Assembly: GCF_003334385.1 (NCBI RefSeq)
Contig: NZ_QOWN01000063.1
Strand: one strand, 5' to 3'
From: Escherichia coli
GTDB taxonomy: Bacteria; Pseudomonadota; Gammaproteobacteria; Enterobacterales; Enterobacteriaceae
Length of the DNA: 16,740 bases
A program made the translations under genes and the position numbers. Positions 10,788-11,099 of this stretch are shown here, piece after piece. Each line of letters opens with the position of its first letter. The first letter of the stretch is position 1. Below the pieces are notes generated by a model. That model saw only the letters and a list, made by a program, of their open reading frames with translations, searched no databases and had not been told where the DNA came from.

Positions 10788-10823
10788 AATTCACCAGTAC
10801 AGCTAAAAATCGTAAAGAGAACA

Positions 10824-10852
10824 GCGGTACATCGTATGTAAGAACGTACCGC
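10824..10852 (-). terminator. Candidate hairpin in ecpE-ykgJ intergenic region (possible ecp operon terminator or attenuator)
   Basis: 7-bp stem GCGGTAC / GTACCGC with a 15-nt loop. On the minus strand it is followed by TGTTCTCTTTACGATTTTT (T-rich but interrupted). It lies about 250 nt downstream of the ecpE stop and about 35 nt upstream of the ykgJ start. Confidence 0.25.
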
Positions 10853-11099
10853 GGTTGGCTGGGGAACTTTCGATAGTGTGAGTATTGAATGATTTCCAGC
10901 CGTTACCGATTTTACGTACTAATTCGTGATTAAACCACTCGTTAGCAGGCTGCCTGATACCTTTCCGTGTCTCCTGAACACTATGGTGTGCATATGAGAA
11001 AGCCCATCGTTACAGGTGATATTGACGATCGCTTCCACATCATTTAAACGATTTTTGGGGCTCTGAGGTGGAATTCTTCCCTCGACCGATGGATAAGTC

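Follow-up and report, generated by a model that had tools for sequence, protein, structure and literature searches.

The spacer between ecpE, the last gene of the ecp fimbrial operon, and ykgJ in Escherichia coli is probably a prophage relic that carries a leaky, phage-derived terminator hairpin. We came to this reading by following up a short annotation, made from the bare sequence (hereafter the original prediction), of a 16,740-nt stretch of E. coli DNA (assembly GCF_003334385.1, contig NZ_QOWN01000063.1; hereafter the window, to which positions refer unless stated otherwise), in which a stem-loop had been noticed in this spacer. The extent given for the spacer (312 bp, positions 10788–11099) and the names of the genes around it agreed with the list of open reading frames (ORFs) and with the RefSeq annotation. 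Its placement just 3′ of the last ecp gene was likewise correct, but what had been missed is that the spacer seems to derive from a prophage and is not an ecp 3′ region. According to our model, it would be the leftover right end of a lambdoid prophage, in whose intact form a tail-fibre assembly gene would face an oppositely oriented series of ykgJ, a structured element of about 100 nt and the SOS-controlled gene dinI, with the attachment site beyond. Where it adjoins ecpE, the E. coli copy of dinI lacks its promoter and the first ~23 codons, and it is frameshifted, with the element and ykgJ left intact. On the − strand, the stem-loop (hairpin 2 in the following) would be a Rho-independent terminator of a weak and leaky kind, or would at least give RNA a stable 3′ end 6–7 nt past its stem, and RNA coming out of ecpE or of the pseudogene would partly end 31 nt before ykgJ.

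The case for a prophage origin starts from DNA homology. In a similarity search, positions ~10674–10980 recurred in E. coli genomes at ~84% identity, and positions ~10674–11041 were 83–84% identical to the right ends of lambdoid and Shiga toxin (Stx) prophages with an intact dinI, and in 194 phage records, mostly of Stx-converting phages, the match falls on the dinI gene. The VT1-Sakai record carries dinI (H0001) and a ‘YkgJ-like’ ORF (H0002) behind a putative SOS box. A prophage of E. coli A24, which adjoins dusA, holds both an intact ykgJ and an intact dinI, in the order tail-fibre genes and a tfa-like gene on one strand, followed on the other by ykgJ (109 aa), the structured element, dinI and int. 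Its DNA is 90% identical to positions 10474–10980, and its YkgJ agrees with that of the window at 104 of 110 aligned positions (stop included, ~95%). The spacer thus shares with the dinI morons of Stx and lambdoid prophages the order and orientation of dinI, the ~100-nt element and ykgJ, at 83–90% DNA identity, but differs from them in that dinI is here promoterless, 5′-truncated and frameshifted and ykgJ is full length. Most Stx phages show the reverse, namely an intact dinI and a truncated ykgJ′ of ~38–66 codons; indeed, most coliphages have just the first 38–66 codons of ykgJ.

The other flank of ykgJ has a phage counterpart as well. In the yagU–ykgJ spacer, the Rfam model IS009 matched positions 10219–10415 with 182.5 bits, and positions 10281–10392 are 76% identical to the 3′ part of lambda tfa (lambda 22378–22491). 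Given that the IS009 model also matches inside the coding regions of tfaQ and lambda tfa, this ‘sRNA family’ corresponds to the 3′ part of a tail-fibre-assembly gene; the coordinates of the small RNA (sRNA) locus EcsR2 fall in the same stretch (PMC4350180). The chromosomal arrangement, with a tfa remnant pointing towards ykgJ, the element and the dinI remnant on the opposite strand, therefore reproduces a prophage right end.

The dinI copy in the spacer is a pseudogene. Homology to prophage dinI begins ~20 nt past the ecpE stop codon, at DinI codon ~24, and the 19-nt junction in between (11081–11099) showed no phage homology when aligned pairwise to the closest prophage copy. Missing are the initial ~23 codons, the promoter, the SOS (LexA) box and the stop codon, while a 22-nt deletion near 10981–10984 shifts the frame, along with small indels. 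At the DNA level the remnant is 75–90% identical to intact prophage dinI. By tblastn, DinI residues 34–55 aligned at 11050–10985 (frame −3) and residues 65–80 at 10979–10932 (frame −2), with a joint E-value of 2e-4. The intact prophage protein matches the PHROG family phrog_189 (DinI, 5e-31), and a stitched 50-aa translation of the remnant alone gave no PHROG match. Neither a complete DinI ORF of ~80 aa with a start codon nor a LexA box with a promoter upstream, as in VT1-Sakai, is present at this locus. Among seven E. coli strains, mean pairwise differences were 0.066 in the remnant versus 0.020 in ykgJ and 0.027 in ecpE, and this ~3-fold excess of variation is the pattern expected of a pseudogene. 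The same decay accounts for a weak ORF (10919–11260) that had been considered probably not coding. It exists and is not a gene, as supposed, but its cause, a decayed dinI-family frame, had been overlooked: its C-terminal third translates one of the two frames of the dinI remnant, and it is open in part because it runs through that frame.

When its surroundings are compared between species, E. coli ykgJ itself looks phage-delivered. In 80 other Enterobacterales species the ykgJ homologue is found without dinI, ecpE and yagU within 4 kb, and in 77 of the 80 no dinI, ecp gene or element lies near ykgJ. Only E. whittamii and Escherichia sp. E1V33, whose YkgJ proteins are 88–90% identical to that of the window, have the element upstream of ykgJ among these species. 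DNA homology to the window otherwise ends 10–20 nt upstream of the ykgJ start codon, and in E. albertii and Salmonella arizonae the ykgJ homologue (74–75% identical) lies between ompW and yciC. The short leader in front of ykgJ, which contains GGUGA 5 nt before the AUG, is the sole part of the spacer common to ykgJ loci in other genera, with homology stopping at ~10795–10809. Within E. coli, the ykgJ–ecpE junction is present in one piece in 4,954 of 5,426 complete genomes, and the window is 100% identical to many RefSeq genomes. Our inference is that a prophage gave rise to the E. coli ykgJ locus and not the reverse. The opposite direction, in which phages took the sequence from the chromosome, was proposed by Nakamura et al. 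(2021, PMC8112680), who were the first to report the homology, and has to be set against our view. Their ‘attB-in-PP_2’ belongs to the same sequence family, and they noted that the ykgJ/ecpE intergenic region is ~81% identical to it over the 96 bp and 84% over 309 bp; in that paper, however, the DNA was seen as chromosomal and phage-captured, and dinI is mentioned zero times (PMC8112680). Our reading differs in that the chromosomal copy would be a prophage relic, whose element folds with covariation and coincides with an RNA 3′ end.

Further observations concern ykgJ loci elsewhere. In E. whittamii, ykgJ lies near icd with the element before it (loci compared: L019, L020, L004 and L211), and ompW, next to which ykgJ is found in E. 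albertii and S. arizonae, is itself a lambdoid attachment site. A P-EibE fragment (AF151676.1, 3375–3455, strain ECOR-9) ends in the last 27 YkgJ residues on the opposite strand, which suggests a prophage abutting or carrying the 3′ end of ykgJ. Genomes of O104:H4, the 2011 outbreak lineage (e.g. NC_018658.1, 2196007–2196892), contain a prophage with coding sequences for DinI-like and YkgJ-family proteins, the latter annotated as two YkgJ pieces; this is a second copy beside the chromosomal one.

Table 1. Features of the ecpE–ykgJ region and its flanks in the window.
Feature	Position	Strand	Basis or remark
ecpE–ykgJ spacer	10788–11099		312 bp; ORF list and RefSeq annotation
ykgJ	10458–10787	−	in lambdoid prophages, the gene 3′ of dinI and the element
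ecpE	starts at 11100	−	ecpD also in the window
yagU	9632–10246	+	
Short leader, RNA 3′ end to ykgJ start codon	10788–10816	−	read from sequence
Mapped RNA 3′ end	10817–10818	−	Term-seq, E. coli MG1655 304212/304213
Conserved ~100-nt element (‘dinI-3′ module’), two hairpins	10817–10916	−	covariance model, alignment
Hairpin 2 (stem-loop of the original prediction)	10824–10852	−	family structure extends to 10821–10855
Hairpin 1	10857–10901	−	GGCUGG/CCAGCC stem, 33-nt loop AAAUCAUUCAAUACUC(A/G)CACUAUCGAAAGUUC
DinI-family pseudogene remnant	10923–11080	−	residues ~24–82 of the 82-aa prophage DinI
Weak ORF	10919–11260	−	113 aa, GTG start inside ecpE; not a gene
Junction after ecpE stop codon	11081–11099		19 nt; pairwise alignment with closest prophage copy
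Tail-fibre-assembly gene remnant (Rfam IS009 / EcsR2 sRNA)	10219–10415	+	other flank of the putative prophage relic

The 7-bp, G+C-containing stem that had been predicted at 10824–10852 is there as a perfect inverted repeat, GCGGTAC (10824–10830) and GTACCGC (10846–10852), with 15 nt between the arms and five G-C pairs. On the transcribed (−) strand, RNAfold extended it to 10 pairs including G-U (GCGGUACGUU/GAUGUACCGC) around a 9-nt loop, with −15.3 kcal/mol, such that the stem is of the kind found in intrinsic terminators (G+C-containing, about 5–14 bp). The sequence 3′ of the stem, UGUUCUCUUUACGAUUUUU, has 5 U among its first 8 nt, which matches the interrupted T-run described on this strand; no U-run follows the hairpin on the + strand. 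The fold-energy calculation that had been proposed as a check is hardly discriminating, however, as among 200 versions of the 312-nt spacer shuffled by dinucleotides 46 had a 46-nt window that reached −15.3 kcal/mol and 44 held a perfect stem of at least 7 bp (loop 3–15); the z-score of −4.1 for the hairpin 2 fold refers to a window picked post hoc. From sequence alone, hairpin 2 is not beyond chance (about 22% of shuffles equal it), and we accept it as real because of the comparative and experimental evidence and not because of its fold.

The comparative evidence comes from a family of elements, each about 100 nt long, in which hairpin 2 is the second hairpin. By pattern search of IMG/VR and other loci we collected 109 copies, 77 of them distinct, and a covariance model built from 72 phage or prophage copies, with this locus left out (model R1), matched positions 10817–10916 with 105.8 bits (E~1e-23, model positions 1–101) on the − strand only. 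Homology between copies starts at GUAAAAUC and ends right past the second hairpin, with sharp edges on both sides of a ~97-nt block, and the flanks fall into many unrelated classes. In the interval from the dinI stop codon to ykgJ, this block stands out by a conservation far above that of the neighbouring genes. In the window the element starts ~7 nt past the position of the dinI stop codon; a DinI-family ORF is placed likewise in about half of the 109 copies, belonging to two divergent types (82 aa and 79 aa, both phrog_189), and in lambdoid and Stx prophages the element lies directly behind an intact dinI. In another class of copies, an integrase gene ends ~92 nt before the element. Copies are also found in lambda-att prophages, at the right end of Qin in K-12 (~1632470–1632571) and in phage lambda itself (NC_001416, 24162–24265; L088, 3163–3266), where the element occupies the interval between ea31 (HNH endonuclease) and ea47 in the b region. 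The lambda copy has a strong stem (−22.4 kcal/mol) and no U-tract, and we found no description of any feature at lambda 24162–24265.

Since RNAalifold recovered only 5 pairs from the raw MAFFT alignment, we set the structure by hand and counted pairs. Across the family, 7 of the 10 pairs of hairpin 2 show changes on both sides (38 cells), a number reached in 0 of 500 shuffles, and 92.5% of cells pair, compared with 25–57% when the partner is slid. A strand test on this hairpin counted 40 G-U versus 23 A-C, merely leaning to the − strand. Hairpin 1 is paired in 96.5% of cells with zero compensatory changes, and its structure is therefore unproven; its loop is invariant or at least 90% conserved over the 77 copies. 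Rfam scans of the window and of the lambda, Qin, PM7 and O111 copies, with both E-value and gathering thresholds, gave no family for the element, the matches being to IS009 (the tfa remnant), transfer-messenger RNA (tmRNA), cspA and, below threshold and on the opposite strand, CssrB.

Among the seven E. coli strains, the two halves of the element vary to different degrees: only 2 of 59 columns vary in the hairpin 1 region, versus 7 of 39 in the hairpin 2 region, the most variable part of the element, where two alleles are found. These alleles (GCGGUACGUUCUUAC..GAUGUACCGC and GCGAUACGUCCCUGC..GACGUACCGC; 10818–10856 in L001, L002 and L212–L215) have 6–7 differences within 30 nt, and both fold (−15.3 and −12.5 kcal/mol). 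One strain, L215, is a mosaic whose 5′ part comes from one haplotype and whose hairpin comes from the other, the breakpoint falling between hairpins 1 and 2. Such a pattern is indicative of recombination or gene conversion, in which prophage copies may have taken part.

The experimental evidence is a mapped RNA 3′ end. The 3′-end mapping that had been suggested as a check on the stem-loop is answered by published Term-seq data, in which MG1655 has 3′ ends at 304212/304213 on the − strand, with counts of 99,298, 95,327 and 87,904 (Adams et al. 2021, PMC7815308, supplementary files 1 and 3). With the K-12-to-window offset of 293,395, taken from the ykgJ coordinates, these ends correspond to 10817/10818, that is, 6–7 nt past the stem and 31 nt before the ykgJ ATG. 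Adams et al. classed the end as ‘orphan’ and ‘upstream ORF, -31’, and reported for this site a Rho score of 1.44 and ‘No’ significant Rho termination region after bicyclomycin (PMC7815308). The Qin copy, which has no dinI upstream, likewise has 3′ ends at 1632571/1632574 (+), 6–9 nt past its stem and also classed as ‘orphan’ (PMC7815308). In vivo, then, RNA 3′ ends on this strand are fixed by the hairpin at two independent copies. In the Term-seq list no 3′ end is nearer to ecpE, so that 10817/10818, 282 nt past the ecpE stop codon, is where the first mapped end lies downstream of the ecp genes. In an hfq mutant of enteropathogenic E. coli (EPEC), ecpA–E are down 2.5–4.8-fold and ykgJ is unchanged, so that ykgJ and ecp are not simply transcribed together; an at least partial uncoupling of ykgJ from ecp fits.

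We consider it likely that hairpin 2 is a leaky intrinsic terminator or a 3′-end-forming hairpin inherited from a phage dinI moron; the 3′ end would then arise by termination and not by trimming, and ecp transcripts would be the RNAs that are ended there. In common with intrinsic terminators it has a G+C-containing stem followed by a U-rich stretch and a Rho-insensitive 3′ end 6–7 nt past the stem. Several findings weigh against this assignment. The loop is long (9 nt, or 15 for the perfect stem, as opposed to 3–8 nt), and the tail UGUUCUCU is an interrupted U-tract; a consensus terminator scan of 10200–11400 called no terminator, and a promoter/terminator consensus scan of the − strand found nothing, including no promoter-like site. 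The site has an intrinsic-terminator score of 2.78, below the cut-off of 3.0, and read coverage over 800 nt upstream and downstream is 44 versus 49, with no drop (PMC7815308). The flat coverage excludes strong termination, even though the test is weak because expression is very low, and together with the low score it means that the site is leaky, or that the end is made by trimming back to the hairpin. The predicted termination of the ecp transcript has thus gained a mapped, Rho-insensitive 3′ end but neither a passing score nor a fall in coverage, and ecp is weakly expressed in K-12 in lysogeny broth. Finally, a U-tail (5 U or more among the 8 nt that follow the stem, seen on the − strand only) is found in 46 of the 77 family copies, among them the Qin and Escherichia sp. 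E1V33 copies, whose canonical GC stems followed by U5–6 have a textbook terminator look; the ~40% of copies that keep the hairpin without a U-rich tail suggest a role besides termination. Searches for 5′ ends in Cappable-seq supplements gave no entries near the window copy or the Qin copy, and a literature search on ecpE and terminators returned nothing relevant.

Other explanations of the element have to be weighed against this one. It is extremely unlikely that hairpin 2 is a chance inverted repeat in decaying DNA, functionless here. The 22–23% of shuffled spacers with an equally good hairpin and the variability of this part of the element in E. coli would fit such a view, but the repeat aligns in register with homologous hairpins in a family of 77 copies that retain them through compensatory changes, both E. 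coli alleles fold, and the mapping of a 3′ end to it largely refutes chance. A regulated attenuator in the ykgJ 5′ leader, served by a promoter upstream of the hairpin, is very unlikely as well: the ‘upstream ORF, -31’ class and the coverage that continues downstream would agree with it, as would the annotation of phage dinI and the ykgJ-like ORF as one SOS-controlled unit with the hairpin in between, but we found no anti-terminator structure, leader peptide or ligand-binding fold, no Rfam cis-regulatory family matches the region, and the SOS promoter is deleted in E. coli. A functional RNA, that is, a 3′ untranslated region (3′UTR)-derived or independent sRNA or a cis-acting 3′UTR element of the dinI moron, seems rather unlikely; hairpin 2 would be its terminator and the loop of hairpin 1 its working part, and what is left of it in the chromosome of E. 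coli would be an orphan, sRNA-like transcript. Loops that are conserved while the stems covary speak for such an RNA, as do the ‘orphan’ 3′ ends at both K-12 copies and a 5′ half that is as conserved in E. coli strains as coding genes while the adjoining dinI remnant decays. The 33-nt loop is invariant even behind the two DinI types, which share little sequence, and this argues against coding constraint. Integrases often target RNA genes and carry a restoring copy, which we also count in favour of this possibility. Against it, no transcription start or 5′ end is known and the scan gave no promoter-like site, RNA-seq coverage is low, the ykgJ/ecpE region has no entry in EPEC Hfq RIL-seq tables, no Rfam family matches, the element is not PasB, hairpin 1 has no compensatory change, and about 40% of copies lack the U-rich tail; supplements of Hfq-CRAC in enterohaemorrhagic E. 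coli likewise hold no dinI or ykgJ entries. A precedent exists in DinR, an Hfq-dependent sRNA cut out of the Klebsiella dinI mRNA’s 3′ end (PMC10907235).

Alternatively, the element might matter mainly as DNA, namely as a recombination or attachment site with the hairpin 2 repeat as a tyrosine integrase core and the RNA end as a by-product, which we regard as doubtful. The core would be an inverted repeat around a conserved 9–13-nt centre, in the way integrases use tRNA stem-loops. Integration of lambda-like phages into prophage-borne copies of a 96-bp sequence homologous to the spacer (‘attB-in-PP_2’) has indeed been reported (Nakamura et al. 2021, PMC8112680), and the ~97-nt element has sharp homology edges, with the same 3′ flanks found behind either dinI or an integrase-bearing 5′ flank, whose 385-aa ORF matches phrog_1 (6e-80). 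Chimeric hairpins (L092 and L109) share the 5′ arm and loop and differ in 3′ arm and flank, strain L215 is a mosaic, and some copies are fused to the 3′ end of ssrA, a known att sequence. Mixed flanks, chimeric hairpins and the mosaic strain show the element to be a recombination hot spot, but the chimeras are equally explained by homologous recombination within ~60 invariant bases, and polymorphism mapping of the crossover could not separate site-specific from homologous exchange. Moreover, an integrase core should keep its arm sequences, whereas the arms found here change in a compensated manner, which is the mark of a single strand that folds. The 3′ ends at two copies would be left unexplained, and no prophage was seen at the chromosomal ecpE–ykgJ copy, although the search for split loci did not run systematically through the 5,426 genomes. 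Loci with the order int, element and ykgJ (L114 and L128) hold a phage-type ykgJ just 85% identical to that of the window, and in a search that was not systematic no complete E. coli genome matched a junction of this type full length above 90.5% identity. Both lines of thought would meet in the tentative and rather unlikely proposal that the element is an undescribed, widely conserved structured RNA of lambdoid phages, regulatory via its 33-nt loop and used as an integration target. The element is present in lambda, Qin, Stx phages and nearly every E. coli chromosome; if the proposal were true, the RNA would be made from the 3′ ends of SOS-induced dinI transcripts or from a promoter of its own, and other phages would integrate there as they do in tRNA and tmRNA genes, bringing a restoring copy.

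A number of known systems were compared with the element, and some candidates could be set aside. Like the element, DinR is structured, lies at the 3′ end of a dinI transcript and closes in a terminator hairpin, but it stems from the chromosomal dinI of Klebsiella pneumoniae, and its pairing region is described as Klebsiella-specific (PMC10907235). CssrB (RF02799), an sRNA of Shigella flexneri, has a 3′-terminal hairpin that aligns to the + strand of hairpin 2 (10785–10853); identity with it failed, with 22.4 bits against a gathering threshold of 76, on the opposite strand and with the rest of the model absent. The lambda sib/tI retroregulator is likewise a b-region hairpin near the attachment site with leftward transcription, but was rejected as it is not homologous and lies about 3 kb away; a PM7 prophage holds both side by side. 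PasB, an EPEC prophage sRNA, was rejected because locus and probe differ. The int–element–ykgJ loci were also considered as prophages sitting in the chromosomal site, which was ruled out as they are phage-in-phage junctions.

Most of this picture can be put together from what is already public: the homology to prophages and the role of the sequence in phage attachment are on record, and the 3′ end is in public data. Earlier work does not appear to have assigned the dinI remnant as a pseudogene, given a structure for the element, noted it in lambda or proposed this direction of transfer. There is nothing unusual in a prophage relic with a weak terminator hairpin, and the finding as originally posed matters little. 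The locus would nevertheless be a clean example of a ‘core’ E. coli intergenic region that, together with its neighbour (tfa′, ykgJ, dinI′), is a domesticated prophage end; this reading reverses the published direction of transfer and would explain why the position of ykgJ differs from that in Salmonella and E. albertii. The ecp fimbrial operon would be without a terminator of its own, the first mapped 3′ end downstream belonging to a hairpin apparently borrowed from a phage. Only the first half of the element is puzzling, being conserved far beyond the needs of a terminator, also in phage lambda.

Three minor observations concern the window and its relatives. On the + strand, Term-seq has a 3′ end at K-12 303835 (window 10440), past the hairpin CCCCGCTATTATCGCTGGCGGGG and antisense to the 3′ end of ykgJ. 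A second, partial copy of the element, comprising hairpin 2 only (ACCGCAGCACGAUCUUGCAUACGACGUGCUACGGUUUCA, 29.1 bits), is found at 696–740 (−) in the CP4-6 prophage region, at the convergent junction of the invertase-like gene yagL (144–698, +) and a yagM homologue (756–1580, −); no Term-seq 3′ end was found at this copy, and the same two types of gene flank full copies of the element in several viral contigs. In five viral contigs (L123, L127, L158, L189 and L191), the 3′ arm of hairpin 2 passes directly into the ssrA 3′ end (GGGTTCAACTCCCGCCAGCTCCACCA), which is the attachment sequence of tmRNA-integrating phages.

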